A stretch of DNA of 64,000 nt from a virus (taxonomy: Duplodnaviria > Caudoviricetes): positions 1 to 64,000 of IMG/VR virus record IMGVR_UViG_3300037067_015585, one strand, 5' to 3'. Below the pieces are notes generated by a model that was given only the letters and a program-made list of their open reading frames with translations, did no database searches and had not been told where the DNA came from. Positions 25,706 to 64,000 of the stretch are shown here, in pieces. Numbering within the stretch: position 1 is the stretch's first letter; every line of letters begins with the position of its first letter. The position numbers and the translations under genes were made by a program.

Positions 25706-26488
25706 TTAGTCTTTTTTAGCTTGCCAGCGTTTTGCTTGGCCGTTATGTATCGTTCTTAAAACGTTTCTGTTCTTATACCATTCAACAACCAAAATCCAAC
25801 CATCAGAGGTAAAATACCTAGCGGTTCTGCAGTGATGCTTAATAATCGTCAGCACAGCATACTTCTTCATAAGTTCAACTTCTGTGCTCCTGTTGAACAT
25901 TTCGTGAAGTTTATCTGCAATATAAGTATCGTCTTGCGTACATCCAGTCCGTTCTCTAAATCGATCTATCGCATGCTTGGCTATATGGATTTGTAGTCCA
26001 AATGCATTTTTACACTCCGTTATTTTGTGCTCAGTCGTAATCCTTTTCGTACATTCTATTATTGTCTTTTTTTCGTACGTGGGCGTTTTTTCTAACGACT
26101 CGACTCTTTCTCTTAATTGTTTGATTACTTCGGCGTCCTGATCTAATAATGCTTTTCTCGATTCAGCCGTTCTCCTCAGATCTCTTAACTCCCTCTCTTG
26201 TATGTGCAGCCGTTGCCTCATGAAATCATATTGTTCTTGCGTTGCCTTCGATAGATCATCATTAAGTCCAGGCAAAACGTTATCGATATATTCAGCCACC
26301 TCGGATACGCATGCCACAAGCTCGACAAACCTATTGGATGATCTGACGCTATGACTGACCATATCACTGGGCGACGGATTATTGCACATAGCAGCGATAA
26401 TCTGCTTGTCGCGGGCAAGCTTTTTTCGTTGCTTGGCTAGTATGGTGTTAAATTTAAAAATTGCTTCTTGTTTAGTTGTCATAGACAC
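25706..26488 (-). CDS. coiled-coil protein with C-terminal HAIDRFRER (BECR/RelE-like RNase-type) domain
   Basis: heptad-rich middle; HA..RF.ER...WILVV...LRTI pattern. Confidence 0.55.
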   Translation of the reverse strand: MSMTTKQEAIFKFNTILAKQRKKLARDKQIIAAMCNNPSPSDMVSHSVRSSNRFVELVACVSEVAEYIDNVLPGLNDDLSKATQEQYDFMRQRLHIQERELRDLRRTAESRKALLDQDAEVIKQLRERVESLEKTPTYEKKTIIECTKRITTEHKITECKNAFGLQIHIAKHAIDRFRERTGCTQDDTYIADKLHEMFNRSTEVELMKKYAVLTIIKHHCRTARYFTSDGWILVVEWYKNRNVLRTIHNGQAKRWQAKKD

Positions 26489-26870
26489 AACCTGGATTCA
26501 TATTGCGCCCATCGACTACAACTGTGTCGCCGTGATGGGCTATTAGAAAATGTGATAATACCGATTTGAAAGCTATAAGAGATTCATGATTCCTGGCATG
26601 AGTAGTCCATTGACAAACAAGATGGACGTTATCTGGGATATATCCCTTGTCATAGTCTATGCGATCAATGCAGATGGCCTCCATGCCATAATGTGTCATC
26701 ATCGGCACATTCGTGATCGCGCAGCGACCATCCTGCCGCTTAAAAAGGTCAATCAAAAACGCTAAATCTATTGTGCATTCGCACAGCGGATTTTCACGCT
26801 GCATACACGGTTGGTGCGTCAGACAGATAAACAAACGGTTAATAAAATCTTCTGGCGTCTCGATTTTCAT
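26472..26870 (-). CDS. HNH-like (His-Me finger) phage endonuclease
   Basis: Q.GRCAIT..PM...IDRID..KGY...NV.LVC motif. Confidence 0.75.
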   Translation of the reverse strand: MKIETPEDFINRLFICLTHQPCMQRENPLCECTIDLAFLIDLFKRQDGRCAITNVPMMTHYGMEAICIDRIDYDKGYIPDNVHLVCQWTTHARNHESLIAFKSVLSHFLIAHHGDTVVVDGRNMNPGCVYDN

Positions 26871-27904: not shown

Positions 27905-28261
27905 TCAGGCCGGTCCGTCAGCCGGTTCGTCCATTGTATATTCGTAATTAACTTTAGCAACGGCATCGTCGGGCAACGATTTTGTAAGTATTATCTGTAC
28001 TGTCCTTGCATTGCTATCACATATAGTGCCCCACGACCCCATCCCCTGTAGACACTCTTCGGTTCCAACACAATTGAATGGCTTTCCATTTTCATCAAAA
28101 GGAATGCGAAGAATGAGGCTACCGTCACCTTTACGTATTTCGGCAACAACAGTTCCAGCAAGAACAGGTCTAAATTCCAAGGTGCAAGAAATAGTCATTC
28201 TTGACGGATGGATGGTCATCGGTTCATCACGGACTAATTGAGAAGTATAATAAGCGTTCAT
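27905..28261 (-). CDS. stand-alone paralog of the major capsid protein insertion domain
   Basis: YY.SQ.V..E..TI.P..M....TL..RPVLAGTVV.E...LR..FD.NG.P...LP.DAVA.VNYEY shared with the MCP. Confidence 0.8.
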   Translation of the reverse strand: MNAYYTSQLVRDEPMTIHPSRMTISCTLEFRPVLAGTVVAEIRKGDGSLILRIPFDENGKPFNCVGTEECLQGMGSWGTICDSNARTVQIILTKSLPDDAVAKVNYEYTMDEPADGPA

Positions 28262-28269
28262 GTTTTTCC

Positions 28270-28614
28270 TTAATATAGGTTAGTATCACTTAGAACATCA
28301 ATGAATTCTTCCAGATGATCCCATCCCCCAAGATCATAGGCCAACTGCTTCGCTCTGATAATTAAACCGAGTATGTCCTTTTCATCATCTGCATTACGTC
28401 GATATTTGCGGCGCAGCGGAGGCACTTTACCATCAGCCACGCGTTTTGCTGCGCTGAACATCGATCGTTCGCAATTTGGTAAGCCGTACTTCTGAAAATG
28501 TGCGTCTACTTGCTGGATAGTCGCATTAGGCCCATACTTTTTGAAGGCTTCTACTGCGATTTCTCTTTTCAATTTGCCATTAAAACGCGGAGCGGATGTT
28601 CTATTTTGCGGCAT
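28270..28614 (-). CDS. hypothetical basic protein (possibly nucleoid-associated)
   Basis: 114-aa ORF. Confidence 0.55.
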   Translation of the reverse strand: MPQNRTSAPRFNGKLKREIAVEAFKKYGPNATIQQVDAHFQKYGLPNCERSMFSAAKRVADGKVPPLRRKYRRNADDEKDILGLIIRAKQLAYDLGGWDHLEEFIDVLSDTNLY

Positions 28615-29158
28615 TACAACTCACTTTATTTCGTGGTTTCTTGGTAATCTTCATTAGATACGCATAATATTCTTGTTTCGGTAGCCTGAACCATTCTGGC
28701 ATTATCGCACGTATCAACTCATCAAAATCGGCATCATAACCGGCGTTTGTCTTGCAAGTATAATTGTTTAATGCTGCACCAAGCGATCTTTCTATTTCGT
28801 CTTTCGACCTATTTGACGGTCGCTTTTGTATACTCCTGGCCATCTCAAGTAATGTCGCCTTCTTCGTAGCCGGATCTCGTGGACCCCATGATGATCGCGG
28901 TCTACCAGGCTTTCGAATAAATTGCTCACTTTTCGAATCAAGCCAGATTTTATCACCGCCACTAACATCGCAGGCAAATATTACGACTTTAGCCTTACCA
29001 TCGTCGTCGAATATACCAGAGATAGGCTCATCAAGCTCACAATGATAAGACCGAATACCGGAGCTCCTATGTGCTGTCACTTCTAGCACAACACTATCGC
29101 GAACAGACAAGGTGCCTGTGACAGTATAGAGCCTTTGCATAATATTACCCAAATTCAT
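28601..29158 (-). CDS. protein with a single C-terminal PDWF-type repeat
   Basis: KKATLLEMARS..KRPSNRSKDEIERSLGAALNNYT...YDADFDELIRAIMPEWF. Confidence 0.75.
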   Translation of the reverse strand: MNLGNIMQRLYTVTGTLSVRDSVVLEVTAHRSSGIRSYHCELDEPISGIFDDDGKAKVVIFACDVSGGDKIWLDSKSEQFIRKPGRPRSSWGPRDPATKKATLLEMARSIQKRPSNRSKDEIERSLGAALNNYTCKTNAGYDADFDELIRAIMPEWFRLPKQEYYAYLMKITKKPRNKVSCNAAK

Positions 29159-29549
29159 CGAATTCTTGAAACGATTCGGTGTTTGGCTCTTCTATAGCCA
29201 TAAATTGTCGTATTTTCTTTTTATATAGCCACTCAGGTAAATCAATCGCTGTCAGGTTCCTCGCGTCACCATGTAATATTGGTGGAGTTCTCGCATTCCT
29301 CATAATCGGAATCCAGACATCAGATCGATTCCCAGGCATACTAATAAGATACGCTTTTTCTGATTGCTTTGCCAATATTGTTCCTTCTGGTAAACTGATG
29401 GTGCGGTAAAAGAAGTTAGGATTTGGTGGGCGACGATATTCACCATCTTCCCAATTCTCAGAATTTCCACGAGGATCGTCTTCCTCGTTATACCGACGCC
29501 ACGGCTCTGTTTCATAATCATACCACTGTCCATTATCGTCGTAAGGCAT
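29145..29549 (-). CDS. hypothetical phage protein (SEKAYL...WIP...PEWL.KKK)
   Basis: ORF; small beta-domain motif of a kind seen in phage proteins. Confidence 0.55.
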   Translation of the reverse strand: MPYDDNGQWYDYETEPWRRYNEEDDPRGNSENWEDGEYRRPPNPNFFYRTISLPEGTILAKQSEKAYLISMPGNRSDVWIPIMRNARTPPILHGDARNLTAIDLPEWLYKKKIRQFMAIEEPNTESFQEFDEFG

Positions 29550-30310
29550 TATTTATGTTTTTGCTTTTTTAATGCTCTGAATGCTATAGAGGCAGCAGAC
29601 GATTTAATCTGCAGCATCTTAATTTCCGGAATAGTTCCCATATGCACCCATAGCTGAGATGGTACAAACAATGCTCTTGTAAAGTCTGGAGGCGCATCGC
29701 AGCGATCCGCACGGCTCTCTAATCTACCATAGTGGACATACGGTATCTTGGAATCGATTGGTCTTCCTTTTTCAAAAGCCTCATCAATGATTTTATTCAG
29801 CTTTGGCGATATTGATATGTAATACACTTCGCCACGTATATCACAATAAACGAACCAAGCGAACTTAAAAAATGATGCGCAAGGAGAATCGCGAAAGCCG
29901 CACGCCATCTGTAAATTGCGTATCTTCCATTCTGGTATACCAACACCAAGAGAACGGCTTTCGTCGAGATGTGAAAAAACGTATCTGGTATACTTTATTT
30001 CTCCAATATACTCGCCAATTGAATCATACCAATCAAGAGGAGGGTTTGGCCAACCATCACGCTTTAGTTTGAATATTGAGCGGTTTGGAGCCTTTGGGTA
30101 GTGTGTATTGAGATATTCTTGAATCACTTCACGTGTGAATTCTTCAACAAGCGACGATTCTAATAAAATCGTATTCCTGTCATCCGCGACGTTTGCTGAT
30201 TTTTTAGAGTCAGATGAAGATGAACTACTAGGTTTTTTGATATCCTTAAAAACATTCATGAATGCATTGTAATAACTTTCAATCTGTTCCATTTTGTTTG
30301 TCTGCTTCAT
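29549..30310 (-). CDS. hypothetical protein
   Basis: 253-aa ORF. Confidence 0.6.
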   Translation of the reverse strand: MKQTNKMEQIESYYNAFMNVFKDIKKPSSSSSSDSKKSANVADDRNTILLESSLVEEFTREVIQEYLNTHYPKAPNRSIFKLKRDGWPNPPLDWYDSIGEYIGEIKYTRYVFSHLDESRSLGVGIPEWKIRNLQMACGFRDSPCASFFKFAWFVYCDIRGEVYYISISPKLNKIIDEAFEKGRPIDSKIPYVHYGRLESRADRCDAPPDFTRALFVPSQLWVHMGTIPEIKMLQIKSSAASIAFRALKKQKHK

Positions 30311-30512
30311 TGTCTGTTATCCTACAAAATCTCTGGTTTGATTGCGTACCAAATAATACGGAAAATCGAGTTTTATATCTTCTTGTTTCTTCATTAATGA
30401 GCGACTAGTTGAGTTCATCATCCTTGATATAGAAAGCTGATTCCGGAAACGTCGGATCGGCCAATGCCATTATCGCCTGCTCTTTGGTCATGCCTTTACT
30501 ATGTGTTCTCTA

Positions 30513-32324
30513 TCAATCAATATTATATGTGAATCTATTCTTTGGCGATTCTTTCACTTTCATATAATGTTCTGATATCGCATATTGATCTTCTGTTATT
30601 GATTTATTTTTAGCACTATCCCAGACAGTCTTCTTATGAATGATTTTACCAGACTTGTCCTCATAATGATAGCTTGCTTTTGTCGATCCATCTAGTTTCC
30701 AACCAGCGGCTTTATACATTGTCCCAATATGGCCAACAGTCGTATCTGCAAATGCTACAAACTTTAATACTTCTGGATGCTGTTTACGATACGTAGCTGT
30801 CACCTTGGATAATAGCCAACTTGCGAAATTGTGTTTATGATAATCTGGGTGAATGCAAAATCTTGCTAATTCTCTAATTTGTGATGGTAGTACATTTTGT
30901 TTTTTTGCTATCTCATTCCTCGTGATCGATCCAATAGTTGCGCAGGCTATAAGCCTGTCGTATAAGTATGCACCAATAGTAAAACCATGCCTACCTGTTC
31001 TTCCGAGATAATGAAAACAACCATAGAATCGCAAGTAATCAGCCTTAGATACTTCTAAAACAATCAAGTCATTAAAATTGAATTCGGTCGGTTGTAATAT
31101 TGCAGACAATCTATCAGATAATTCATCAAGATTCGAATTATCCAAAACAAAAAATTTATCCAAAAAAGTGTCGAATCCCGCTTTGATTTTTTCAAGTTCT
31201 TTTGGCTGTTTTGCTAGCCATATCGACTTCATTTCGATGATGAGAAAATCGCCATTCTCAAGCCAAATTCGAAAATCGGGAATAAATATGTGTATACCAT
31301 TATAATCATATTCAACTAATGCAAAATCGCGTTCAAGATGAACAATTCGACGATCACTATCACACTTTTCAATGAATGCTAACTCATAACTTGAATCGAA
31401 TTGAATTTGACCAAATCTGGTATGTATTGCTCCCTTATATGAATTACATTTACCTTCTTGTCTCAGCCTACTGATTAGTTCGGAATCTGCTTTCCTTTTT
31501 TCAAGATCTAGCCATAACTCTTTTTGCTTCTGAGAAACAATAACTGCATAGTCTGGATTTTGTTCCCAAAACACCCTTCCAGATATTGATCCGATTTCGG
31601 CACAATATTTTGCTATTTCTTCTGGGTGCTTCTTACCGAAAAATGGATTGCCTTCCCCGGACATTATTTCAGATGTGGTTCTTATAACGATACCGCGAGA
31701 TTCTAAAATAGTTCGCACATATGTCATAGTGCAATCGTGTTTCTCAGCAGTTTTTGATAAAGACCCTAATTTTAGATAGTCGGCAGCTATCTCATCCTTA
31801 TTTAATGGTACATCATGCTTACGATGGCCATTAAACTTCATAATTGGTGCCCTCAGCTTCACACCCATCCTATTCAATTTCCTATCAATGCTTTCGACAC
31901 TAATAGAATATTTCTTTGATAGCTCGGTTAATGTATTGCCAGCCTGATATTCTGCGGCTATTTTTGTATAATTATATGGTTTTGGTGGCTGTATAATCGC
32001 GTGATTGGCGCATAGCCTTGAGATTGCTGATGTCGATCTCCCAACTGACAGCGCAATCTCTGAAAGAGATTTACCCGATCCGCGTAAATCTGAAATCGCT
32101 TTTAAAATATCAGGTTTATCTAAATCTGACTTTACACCGATGTGCCCAGCATCAGAAGCAGATCTCGATAAACCAAGAATATTACAAAGCTTCATTATTG
32201 TCCGTCTTGACACGCCAAATTTTTCGGCTATCTCTTGCTGAGTGGCACCGTTATTAAATAAATATCTAACTTCTACTTTATCAGAATCAGAGAATCGATC
32301 GGTAACTGGAATTGGTGATGGCAT
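30513..32324 (-). CDS. multi-HTH + NUMOD3 + TnsA-like PD-(D/E)xK endonuclease + Mom-like GNAT domain fusion
   Basis: HTHs (QQEIAEKFGVSRRTI etc.), GEGNPFFGKKH, DSSYE...FIPDF...IEMKS, HYLG...ELARFC...FADT..GH.GT.YKAAGW. Confidence 0.8.
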   Translation of the reverse strand: MPSPIPVTDRFSDSDKVEVRYLFNNGATQQEIAEKFGVSRRTIMKLCNILGLSRSASDAGHIGVKSDLDKPDILKAISDLRGSGKSLSEIALSVGRSTSAISRLCANHAIIQPPKPYNYTKIAAEYQAGNTLTELSKKYSISVESIDRKLNRMGVKLRAPIMKFNGHRKHDVPLNKDEIAADYLKLGSLSKTAEKHDCTMTYVRTILESRGIVIRTTSEIMSGEGNPFFGKKHPEEIAKYCAEIGSISGRVFWEQNPDYAVIVSQKQKELWLDLEKRKADSELISRLRQEGKCNSYKGAIHTRFGQIQFDSSYELAFIEKCDSDRRIVHLERDFALVEYDYNGIHIFIPDFRIWLENGDFLIIEMKSIWLAKQPKELEKIKAGFDTFLDKFFVLDNSNLDELSDRLSAILQPTEFNFNDLIVLEVSKADYLRFYGCFHYLGRTGRHGFTIGAYLYDRLIACATIGSITRNEIAKKQNVLPSQIRELARFCIHPDYHKHNFASWLLSKVTATYRKQHPEVLKFVAFADTTVGHIGTMYKAAGWKLDGSTKASYHYEDKSGKIIHKKTVWDSAKNKSITEDQYAISEHYMKVKESPKNRFTYNID

Positions 32325-32376: not shown

Positions 32377-32405
32377 ATTATATCATAGCCAAGTCGATGT
32401 GTCAA
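32377..32405 (-). promoter_or_regulatory. consensus sigma70 promoter TTGACA-N17-TATAAT for the endonuclease/Mom-like gene
   Basis: perfect consensus just downstream of the capsid terminator. Confidence 0.85.
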
Positions 32406-32412
32406 TATCTAT

Positions 32413-32448
32413 AAAAAGAGCCGGGTGGGATTTCTCCAACCCGGCTCT
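32413..32448 (-). terminator. Rho-independent terminator after the major capsid gene
   Basis: AGAGCCGGGT...ACCCGGCTCT stem followed by a U-tract on the minus strand. Confidence 0.85.
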
Positions 32449-32481: not shown

Positions 32482-34080
32482 TTAGAGGTTTGTCACAGAT
32501 ATCGTACCGTAATAGAGGCCACCATCCTCGATCAGTTTCTTTCCATAACGTGTCATAATCCCCTTGGTGGGGGTGTGGCTGTTCGGATCGAGAACTGTTG
32601 GAGTGCTCAGCAGTGGGATGTACGGAGCGTAGAAGTAACCAGCATCCAGAACGCTCGAACCCTTGAAGCCCAAGAGGATCTTGCAGTTCGGGAAGAGTGG
32701 GTCCTTGTACAACCGCAACTTGCCCTGGATCGTACCAGCGTTCATGATTCCGATGTCCACACCCTCTTGTACGAAGGCGTCTGACGAACGGAAGTCATTC
32801 AGCTGTTCGAACTTGGAGCTGATATCAGCGGAGGTCACCATCCAGTTGGCAGGACCACGCAAGGTGGTTCTGTGGATGATATTGGCAACTTCGAGCACCT
32901 TGTAGAGCAAGGCGATATTACGGTCTGTGAAGTTGACTGAAGCACCGGCTGCGGTGGCGAAGTTATGAGTCGCACGAATAGCGGCAGCGATAATCAAGTC
33001 GTTGATGATTTCGCGGTCGATTTCGGCGACCATTTCATCGGCCATGAGGTCCGTCAATGTGCTCTCGGCGTCAATGTTGTGCACTGACTTGAGATCTTGA
33101 GCGGCTTCCAACGACCACGAGGTCTTGAGCTTACGAGTAACAGCCGCAACGCTATCACTGTCGATGCTCAACGTGACTTCTGGTTGGAAAGGATTCGCTT
33201 CGAGGTCGTACTCGTAGTTAACGCGAGCAACGGCGTCGGCTGGAAGAGGACTGCCGGACAACGTAACCTTGGCAACACCGGTCGTATGATCGAACGACGT
33301 AGCGCCTGGGGTGATGTCAACATTCAATTCACCCATCGTACCACTGCAATCGCCCTTGACCACGACGTCTGGCGCACCGTTCGCGTCGAAACTGACGCGG
33401 AGGCAAGGAATCGGGTTGTCGCAATTCGGGCCAGCGGCGGCGAGATTGTCGTAAACTTCGACCACAACCGTACCAGCCAAAACTGGACGATGGGCCAAGG
33501 TCTGTGTAACAACCATGTTGCCTGGCTGAATCGTGGCGTCCTCACCGTGCACTTCTTGCGAAGAGTAGTAAGGATCGAGTGCCCATCCGTTTTGCTTCGC
33601 ATAAGCCTGCGAAGTGTTCTGACGCATGATCTGGGTACCAGCGATTGTCTGGCCCTTGGTCATGGCGTACTTGTAGCGGATGTAGAAAATCAATGAAGCC
33701 GGTTGGCTCATTGGCTGAACGCCGACCAAATTGTCAGCGATCAACTTGGGGAAGCTCTTGCGGAGCAAAGGCAACGCAAAGCGGGTAAAGTCCGCGATGT
33801 TGCCGGTGGTCGTCTGATCTTCCAAGATCATCGAACGACCGGTCGGGTTCATGTGCTTGTACTGGTTCTCGAACAAAGCCGACATCAAGCCCATCTTTTG
33901 GGGCCGAATTTCGCGGCATTTGTTGAGGACCGGAGCCCAACGCTTCACTGTCGGGTTCTTGGTCGATTCGTACAAGACAGTTGCTTGGTGCGGATCGGCT
34001 GTTTCGGTAATCATCTGGCGACGATTACGTGATTCGACCAGATGGCGAGCCTGCGGCTTGTTTTGTCTAGTAGCCAACAT
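32482..34080 (-). CDS. major capsid protein, T4 gp23-like
   Basis: LVGVQPM.QP..LIF, TRKLK..WS.EAAQDL...H.IDAE, EIDREII, G.FYAPYIPL, P.KGIMTRYG. Confidence 0.97.
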   Translation of the reverse strand: MLATRQNKPQARHLVESRNRRQMITETADPHQATVLYESTKNPTVKRWAPVLNKCREIRPQKMGLMSALFENQYKHMNPTGRSMILEDQTTTGNIADFTRFALPLLRKSFPKLIADNLVGVQPMSQPASLIFYIRYKYAMTKGQTIAGTQIMRQNTSQAYAKQNGWALDPYYSSQEVHGEDATIQPGNMVVTQTLAHRPVLAGTVVVEVYDNLAAAGPNCDNPIPCLRVSFDANGAPDVVVKGDCSGTMGELNVDITPGATSFDHTTGVAKVTLSGSPLPADAVARVNYEYDLEANPFQPEVTLSIDSDSVAAVTRKLKTSWSLEAAQDLKSVHNIDAESTLTDLMADEMVAEIDREIINDLIIAAAIRATHNFATAAGASVNFTDRNIALLYKVLEVANIIHRTTLRGPANWMVTSADISSKFEQLNDFRSSDAFVQEGVDIGIMNAGTIQGKLRLYKDPLFPNCKILLGFKGSSVLDAGYFYAPYIPLLSTPTVLDPNSHTPTKGIMTRYGKKLIEDGGLYYGTISVTNL

Positions 34081-63028: not shown

Positions 63029-64000
63029 TTACGCCCAATTGTTTAATCTTGTGCTAAGTTTCGATGGCGACTCACCCATTTTTGGTAGGTATGTTTGTAG
63101 TAATGTTTTGATTACATCAACATTACTAGTACTACTATCACTGTTAATCTTTTCAACAGTGTCAGCGATCTCTTTCATTAATTCTGCGTTATAAGCGAGC
63201 AATGCCTCTAAATTACTCGCTGATGAACCAGACTTTTCTGTTTTAACTTGTATGGTAGAAATGGTTTCTGCCATAACTTTCTTTTTGTCTGGTTCCTCGA
63301 TGCCAGTAGAAACACCAAGTTTGCTAGATAATAATTCAAGTGCTGCGAATGACGTTTGTAATGTATCGACCTGATTCTTTATTTTGTTTTGCCCAGATTC
63401 AATAGCGGCAGCTACTCTGTTAGTTACATCATTGATAGTCGGAATTACATCTAATAATCCAATAAAAGCAGTTGTCATGTAATCTCGCAGTTGCGACATT
63501 ACAGACACAATTCCAGAAAATCCAGATGTAATACTAGATATTGCCCTATTTGATGTTAATTCCAATGCTCCGAACGCATCGATTAATGAGCTTGTGAACG
63601 ATATTAAAGATGACCCGATAGTTGATATGCTATTAATGTTGAACCTTGATATAGAATCTAATACACGTCCAAACAGCGTCAGCGACTGCCCTGCTATACT
63701 TGTTTTTGCTGGATCGATTTTATTTATTCCAGAAGATAATCCAATCATTTCAATGGAAAGCCTGTTGCCATAACCAGTGATTGCCGCAAGACCAGATATT
63801 TCACTTGTAGCATGACTAAATCTTGCTAATGATTGCCCAACAACATCCATCTTGTTTTGATCTATTTCGCTGACACCGGAAGACAATCCACGCATAGCCT
63901 TGGGAAAATCGACACCCCATCCCATCGACTCCATAAACGATTTTGTGCCAGGACCCAATGTAAGCAAAGCATTACTAAATTTTTGTAATCTACCATCGCT
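63029..64000 (-). CDS. probable tape measure protein, C-terminal part (truncated by window edge)
   Basis: frame open to the window end; Ser/Ala/Ile-rich helical; upstream of baseplate genes. Confidence 0.6.
   Translation of the reverse strand, partial: SDGRLQKFSNALLTLGPGTKSFMESMGWGVDFPKAMRGLSSGVSEIDQNKMDVVGQSLARFSHATSEISGLAAITGYGNRLSIEMIGLSSGINKIDPAKTSIAGQSLTLFGRVLDSISRFNINSISTIGSSLISFTSSLIDAFGALELTSNRAISSITSGFSGIVSVMSQLRDYMTTAFIGLLDVIPTINDVTNRVAAAIESGQNKIKNQVDTLQTSFAALELLSSKLGVSTGIEEPDKKKVMAETISTIQVKTEKSGSSASNLEALLAYNAELMKEIADTVEKINSDSSTSNVDVIKTLLQTYLPKMGESPSKLSTRLNNWA

Follow-up and report, generated by a model that had tools for sequence, protein, structure and literature searches.

An I domain outside the major capsid protein gene

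We analyzed a 64,000-nt window, that is, the whole stretch of DNA from position 1 to position 64,000 of IMG/VR record IMGVR_UViG_3300037067_015585. The complete record was 234 kb (64% complete by CheckV), and its source is a huge uncultured T4-like phage. The following features, in window coordinates, extended from the gene of interest to the major capsid protein (MCP) gene.

27905..28261, minus strand: stand-alone insertion-domain (I-domain) gene P0001, 118 aa, a paralogue of MCP residues 168-294
28267..28271, minus strand: Shine-Dalgarno sequence AAGGA, 5 nt before the P0001 ATG; it overlaps the TAA stop codon of the 114-aa gene upstream
28270..32324, minus strand: upstream genes of the P0001 unit, namely the gene for a 603-aa protein followed by ORFs of 253, 134, 185, and 114 aa
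32377..32405, minus strand: putative sigma70-type promoter, TTGACA/17 nt/TATAAT plus an upstream TG (12/12 matches, by consensus matching only)
32412..32448, minus strand: intrinsic terminator immediately downstream of the MCP gene, consisting of a hairpin (-24.6 kcal/mol, z -6.1) with a U run behind it
32482..34080, minus strand: gp23-type MCP, 532 aa (Pfam PF07068, E 1.9e-77; phrog_138)
33199..33579, minus strand: I domain within the MCP gene, the parental segment (MCP residues 168-294)

The original prediction had identified the product of the first of these genes as a free-standing MCP insertion domain in the accessory region, and this identification was right. The P0001 reading frame began with ATG and ended with TGA. 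When P0001 was compared to the 532-aa MCP by BLASTP, its residues 1-111 aligned with MCP residues 168-294 at 38% identity and 50% positives (E 5e-20), which confirmed the end-to-end match between a free-standing ORF and a segment of the phage's own MCP. The motifs on which that match had been based (YYTSQLV/YYSSQEV, RPVLAGTVV, and FDENGKP/FDANGAP) were present in both proteins, and the MCP segment, which had been placed at about 33200-33575, measured 33199-33579 on the minus strand. P0001 also matched the same segment in about 80 related MCPs. The Pfam Gp23 model gave P0001 no score; the I-domain segment is poorly modelled there. A six-frame search of the whole 234-kb record located I-domain-like sequence at two places only, P0001 and the MCP gene.

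The I domain occupied the entire 118 aa of P0001. Specifically, the protein consisted of the globular I domain with both linkers absent, and it contained no HK97-fold A or P domain, spine helix, signal peptide, membrane anchor, or partner domain. The six-frame search found no MCP-like sequence flanking P0001 in any frame. We considered whether P0001 was what remained of a second MCP gene or a gp24 gene after decay and rejected this candidate, given the lack of flanking MCP-like sequence and of a gp24 paralogue. By sequence comparison, P0001 is securely identified as a stand-alone, accessory, and fast-evolving paralogue of the MCP I domain. The duplication that gave rise to it covered exactly the globular I domain, and the source was a gp23-type MCP of the same phage clade.

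The parental MCP aligned with T4 gp23 in the PDB with an E value of 2.5e-31 (profile alignment). Linker 1 of the T4 gp23 I domain spans aa 132-160 (PMC9546572), and this limit, taken together with the profile alignment, placed the beginning of the MCP segment where the T4 I domain begins. The I domain was the most variable part of the MCP, with 55-86% identity among related MCPs vs 72-93% for the whole protein. The MCP-bearing clade consisted of uncultured phages of 340-410 kb and was represented by at least 154 IMG/VR loci with an MCP identity of 72-93%; gene order in the clade was conserved upstream of the MCP gene and was lost directly behind it. A gp24-like vertex paralogue was not found in the 234-kb record or in the clade. 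Five complete clade genomes (G003, G004, G006, G007, and G010) contained one Gp23-family gene each and no gp24-like paralogue. Pentons in this clade presumably consist of the MCP itself or of a protein that has gone unrecognised.

Predicted fold of P0001

AlphaFold2 modeled P0001 as a beta-sandwich when supplied with an MCP-rich alignment (pLDDT 88, pTM 0.80), and the strand order was unchanged when the alignment contained only P0001 and the four other free copies described below (pLDDT 85, pTM 0.77). The models thus predict that P0001 folds autonomously as a beta-sandwich. Among 48,161 chains of solved structures, the top match to the model was the I domain of the phage P1 MCP (9ukm_A, residues 197-305; Z 6.8, rmsd 3.2 over 96 residues). 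This match was followed by many Ig V domains, over which the margins were small, and by the MCP of the Staphylococcus jumbo phage S6. The best ESM Atlas match was a Gp23 cluster (TM 0.66), and Foldseek searches of the PDB and BFVD returned only weak, generic Ig-like or MCP matches. When the complex between MCP residues 95-532 and P0001 was predicted, the score was 0.00, a value that weighs neither way on binding.

Transcription context and codon composition

P0001 was the final gene of a unit located behind the MCP terminator, and the sigma70-type promoter at 32377..32405, as judged from its match to the consensus, is the probable start of this unit. The genes upstream of P0001 were tightly packed save for one 202-nt gap (30311-30512), and the intergenic spacers between the promoter and P0001 contained no terminator-like site. 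A further promoter-like element and an endonuclease VII/HNH-like gene were located downstream of P0001. The T4-type late promoter motif TATAAATA was not enriched in the window and did not occur near P0001.

Codon composition placed P0001 (GC3 0.36) with its accessory neighbours (GC3 0.29-0.39); GC3 was 0.65 in the MCP gene, 0.61 in the MCP I-domain segment, and 0.48 in the 226-aa gene just upstream of MCP. The longest exact DNA run common to the P0001 and MCP genes was 9 nt, and the best blastn pieces were 80% identical over 30 nt and 71% identical over 45 nt. Because no shared run exceeded 9 nt and GC3 was 0.36 vs 0.61, the copy appears to be either old or imported, to be expressed weakly, and to have no use as a donor for recombination. 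P0001 is a real protein-coding accessory gene.

Several of the neighbouring genes had recognizable relatives. The 603-aa protein (30513-32324, minus strand) contained several HTH motifs, NUMOD3, a nuclease-like part, and a C-terminal Mom-like domain (Pfam Mom, E 6e-20). In contig L090, too, the MCP gene was followed by a related gene, of 718 aa. The 185-aa gene (28601-29158, minus strand), two genes upstream of P0001, belonged to an HA-like repeat family, which is a large family at 8.5-25 kb of the window that the 185-aa gene matched down to E 1e-58; this gene was the only one of the ORFs neighbouring P0001 to have paralogues. The 132-aa endonuclease VII/HNH-like protein (26472-26870, minus strand; phrog_3322, E 3e-12) had a paralogue near 152 kb of the genome. 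No neighbouring ORF resembled any other virion protein of the same genome.

Free and fused copies in other phages

Six-frame searches of the five closest relatives, including two complete genomes, detected no I-domain copy outside the MCP, and no second I-domain copy was present within 10 kb at about 80 MCP loci. P0001 is accessory and dispensable, as indicated by its absence from the closest relatives. In 25 further records, we detected one fused copy, in genome G006, and no free copy. The fused copy (L106:4940-6043) was an I-like domain that formed the C-terminus of a 367-aa protein, after a 250-aa N-terminal domain, and it was located in a glycosyltransferase cluster. A homologue of the N-terminal domain that lacked the I-like part (L029:11687-12451) adjoined the MCP gene of another complete phage.

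An exhaustive HMMER search of 1.84 billion representatives yielded four more small free-copy proteins, with lengths of 109-149 aa. All four were internal to their contigs, and each was located in a different genome slot. The free copy in L090 was 7.6 kb behind an MCP gene that was 79% identical to the MCP gene of the P0001 phage, one copy was directly upstream of an SbcD-like nuclease gene, and one was in a slot equivalent to 108 kb of the P0001 genome. P0005 was found on two short contigs with 100% identical DNA, and one other contig carried the P0001 protein, identical at the protein level. An identical gene also occurs in SRR18595300. The same HMMER search returned giant repeat proteins (P0003, P0004, P0006, and others), which might have been taken as a sign of a generic domain. 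We rejected them as repeat artefacts; they carried SRCR or Listeria-Bacteroides repeats and many short-stretch matches.

The boundaries of the free copies were similar. All five lacked both linkers and started at the (L)DPYY motif or, in one case, 18 residues earlier, and four of the five ended 2-10 residues after the YEY motif. The exception was P0013 (L092:239-688), in which a tail of about 40 residues with a hydrophobic stretch followed the domain; its stop codon overlapped the start of an SbcD-like nuclease gene.

Each free copy was a singleton cluster, giving 5 clusters in a database of 5.8 billion. Word-index searches at similar length returned only the five free copies, and a word-index search among longer proteins, which is a weak test, returned no I-domain match. 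P0001 had no DNA or protein match in the GenBank phage collection and no match in an IMG/VR pattern scan. At the sequence level, the I domain was not a generic domain of the kind found in many unrelated proteins.

Evolution of the free copies

We built an IQ-TREE phylogeny from 61 MCP I domains, the five free copies, and an outgroup. The free copies nested inside the MCP I-domain clade on very long terminal branches. Four of these branches measured 1.87, 1.73, 2.95, and 4.39 changes/site, vs a median of 0.09 for the MCP I domains; the branch of P0005, which was up to 72% identical to an MCP, measured 0.36 changes/site. The rate of evolution of the free copies is about 20-50 times that of the domain embedded in the MCP, which relaxed constraint and an arms race would explain equally well. 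P0001 and P0009 were sisters (support 99/90), yet they were only 37% identical. The unconstrained tree required three changes, and a single clade of free copies was not rejected (AU p 0.43); both one origin and several origins are compatible with the tree.

The free copies were still open on these long branches, which did not fit the decay that had been considered for P0001. In a substitution-only simulation of drift to 40% identity, 6% of ORFs remained open, and six-frame searches of 31 records detected no broken I-domain copy. Columns that are conserved in the MCP were retained at 54-65% in the free copies vs about 36% overall. Eight columns were kept in all four long-branch copies vs 4.4 expected (P 0.02), which is a marginal result, and three of these copies may share ancestry. 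Taken together, the intact ORFs on long branches, the lack of broken copies, and the column retention favor selection for an intact, folded free I-domain protein. This conclusion falls short of proof because protein-database searches are biased towards open copies and close orthologues are lacking. We think it very probable that P0001 is a real, selected stand-alone I-domain gene.

Other MCP pieces in small ORFs of relatives

When the 31 records were searched with an MCP profile, small ORFs of relatives were found to contain pieces corresponding to MCP residues 77-146, 294-342, 446-489, 472-512, and 18-113. Genomes G026 and G027 each contained the conserved MCP region at about residues 94-147, G017 and G022 contained the C-terminal GYFYAPY region, and the piece in contig L077 covered residues 18-113. 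These pieces were short motifs joined to unrelated sequence, whereas P0001 was a complete domain. The architecture of a carrier plus a fragment was seen in chimeric ORFs of G010, G026, and G027 and not in P0001, which had no extra domain, and no chimeric MCP-fragment ORF was found in the genome of P0001.

In the case of G010 (395 kb), three small ORFs (L107:1357-1848, L108:1246-1710, and L109:1350-1805) opened with different conserved MCP stretches (77-146, 446-489, and 294-342, respectively; 47-74% identity) and continued with about 90 unrelated residues. Four chimeric ORFs (L111:1136-1738, L112:1131-1568, L113:865-1470, and L114:1275-2021) were located 5-8 kb from their MCP genes and carried either the region around MCP residues 94-147, which is the stretch equivalent to T4 Gol, or the C-terminal GYFYAPY region. 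The L111 and L112 ORFs were alike also outside the MCP-like piece.

Discussion

We found no literature description of stand-alone capsid-domain genes of the P0001 kind, and we compared P0001 with the known systems that it most resembles. The predicted beta-sandwich would be a fold common to P0001 and the I domains of MCPs (gp23/gp24, Pfam PF07068, PDB 7VS5, 5VF3, and 1YUE; P1 MCP, PDB 9UKM). P0001 is homologous to the I domain of its own MCP, whose location within that protein corresponds to that of the T4 I domain. However, the T4-type I domain is tethered, whereas P0001 has a 118-aa gene to itself, lacks the HK97-fold A and P domains as well as both long linkers, evolves far faster, and is located in a non-structural accessory unit. 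Like T4 gp24, P0001 is an MCP-gene-derived paralogue encoded downstream of the MCP gene, but gp24 is a full HK97-fold subunit that builds pentons, and P0001, as a single surface domain, cannot be a shell subunit. T4 Hoc, T5 pb10, and N4 gp17 are likewise small beta-sandwich modules whose genes are separate from the main head genes, and a surface location is possible for P0001. It differs from these proteins in being derived from the MCP; no relationship to them was detectable in its sequence, and it has no distinct domain for capsid binding. Its promoter context and codon make-up (GC3 0.36 vs 0.65 for the MCP) argue against the high late expression of a Hoc-type decoration protein. For these reasons of promoter context and low-expression codon make-up, and also because the closest relatives lack it, the decoration role that the original prediction had allowed for is disfavoured in its stoichiometric form.

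The expression context suggests that P0001 would be made in modest amounts from an early-type sigma70 unit, apart from the late head genes, and expression of this kind would mean that it is not a stoichiometric component of the shell. P0001 might instead be a soluble protein of low abundance that imitates the projecting part of the MCP subunit, and in this capacity it would bind whatever normally contacts the I domain. Our first choice of partner would be a host factor that senses capsid protein, in which case P0001 would be an antagonist or decoy. The second choice would be the docking site on a neighbouring MCP subunit, in which case P0001 would modulate assembly, including that of a co-infecting relative. 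Defences that sense the MCP exist and include Avs7/Dsr1, CapRel, and Lit (bioRxiv 10.64898/2026.01.04.697583, PMC9712102).

We favor this explanation as a whole only tentatively, at slightly less than an even chance, and we would put it no higher for its central element, namely, that P0001 works by mimicry of the MCP surface. The specific role of immune decoy, which had been proposed for P0001 from the start, is doubtful. If the ligand that it imitates activates the sensor, the mimic could set the sensor off rather than block it. Furthermore, the surface is much changed at 38% identity, and mimicry of the phage's own I domain may already have been lost. Finally, it is unusual for a useful anti-defence gene that the free copies are all singletons (5 clusters among 5.8 billion).

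The main rival to mimicry, which we regard as unlikely, is that P0001 is a by-product with little or no function. According to this idea, MCP pieces are occasionally copied into plastic accessory regions, perhaps with the help of the nuclease genes beside the MCP gene; the I domain, being the only piece that folds by itself, would then linger as a harmless ORF or as a capturable domain in transit. The other MCP pieces in small ORFs of relatives and the I-like domain fused into the 367-aa protein are consistent with such copying, and a homing-endonuclease-like gene follows the MCP gene both in the genome of P0001 and in L090. It also fits that the free copies are all singletons, have very long branches, and are missing from the closest relatives. 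However, five copies with the same domain-exact boundaries are all open; in simulation, substitutions alone left 6% of ORFs open at this divergence, and real indels would reduce this fraction further. In addition, no decayed copy was present in the 31 six-frame-searched records, the sisters P0001 and P0009 have both stayed open through about 63% divergence, and P0001 has a good ribosome-binding site and operon-like packing.

A minor capsid-associated protein is a third idea, which appears improbable. Here, the untethered I domain would dock in trans as a low-copy decoration or assembly factor, for example on procapsids or at special sites of the shell close to its vertices or portal. Decoration proteins of the Ig-like type are common (PMC7602432), P0001 is acidic (pI 4.6) like MCP I domains (about 4.05), and a clade without a gp24-type vertex paralogue must build its pentons differently. 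Against this idea, the P0001 gene is not part of the late head module but follows a terminator and a sigma70 promoter, and it has the codon make-up of a weakly expressed accessory gene. Moreover, complete relatives manage without a P0001 copy, and the tethered I domain already serves every docking site of the capsomer.

We give still less credence to the proposal that P0001 is a re-purposed Ig-like binding module directed at a non-capsid target, such as a glycan or a host protein. Its predicted fold is like that of Ig V-type sandwiches, most of its surface residues have been replaced, and the fused copy in G006 is located among glycosyltransferase genes; however, P0001 has no signal peptide, membrane anchor, or partner domain, and the likeness to Ig folds is generic (Z under 7). 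Lastly, the suggestion that P0001 is a silent donor cassette for varying the capsid surface by gene conversion, which drew on the I domain being the most variable part of the MCP, has practically no chance of being correct, given the near absence of shared DNA (at most 9 nt, with the short blastn pieces noted above), the GC3 difference of 0.36 vs 0.61, and the presence of a start codon and ribosome-binding site of its own.

Returning to mimicry of the capsid protein, a broader version of this reading is that huge phages possess a previously undescribed class of accessory genes derived from parts of the phages' own virion proteins. As a member of this class, P0001 would be expressed before or apart from head assembly, and it would imitate unassembled capsid protein and thereby blunt host immune sensors of the MCP or poison the capsid assembly of competitors. 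We consider this broader version speculative and, at present, rather improbable.

To our knowledge, the only form in which the T4-type I domain has been described is that of a tethered clamp within the shell protein. A selectively kept free copy shows that the I domain can exist as an independent protein, and it links built-in capsid domains with trans-acting accessory proteins. Should P0001 be no more than a lingering by-product, it would still be evidence that these huge phages have an unusual tendency to scatter capsid-gene pieces. If mimicry of capsid protein towards host sensors or the capsid lattice is true, P0001 would represent a new kind of assembly regulator or phage counter-measure, and it would provide a small, easily expressed reagent for probing capsid sensing.
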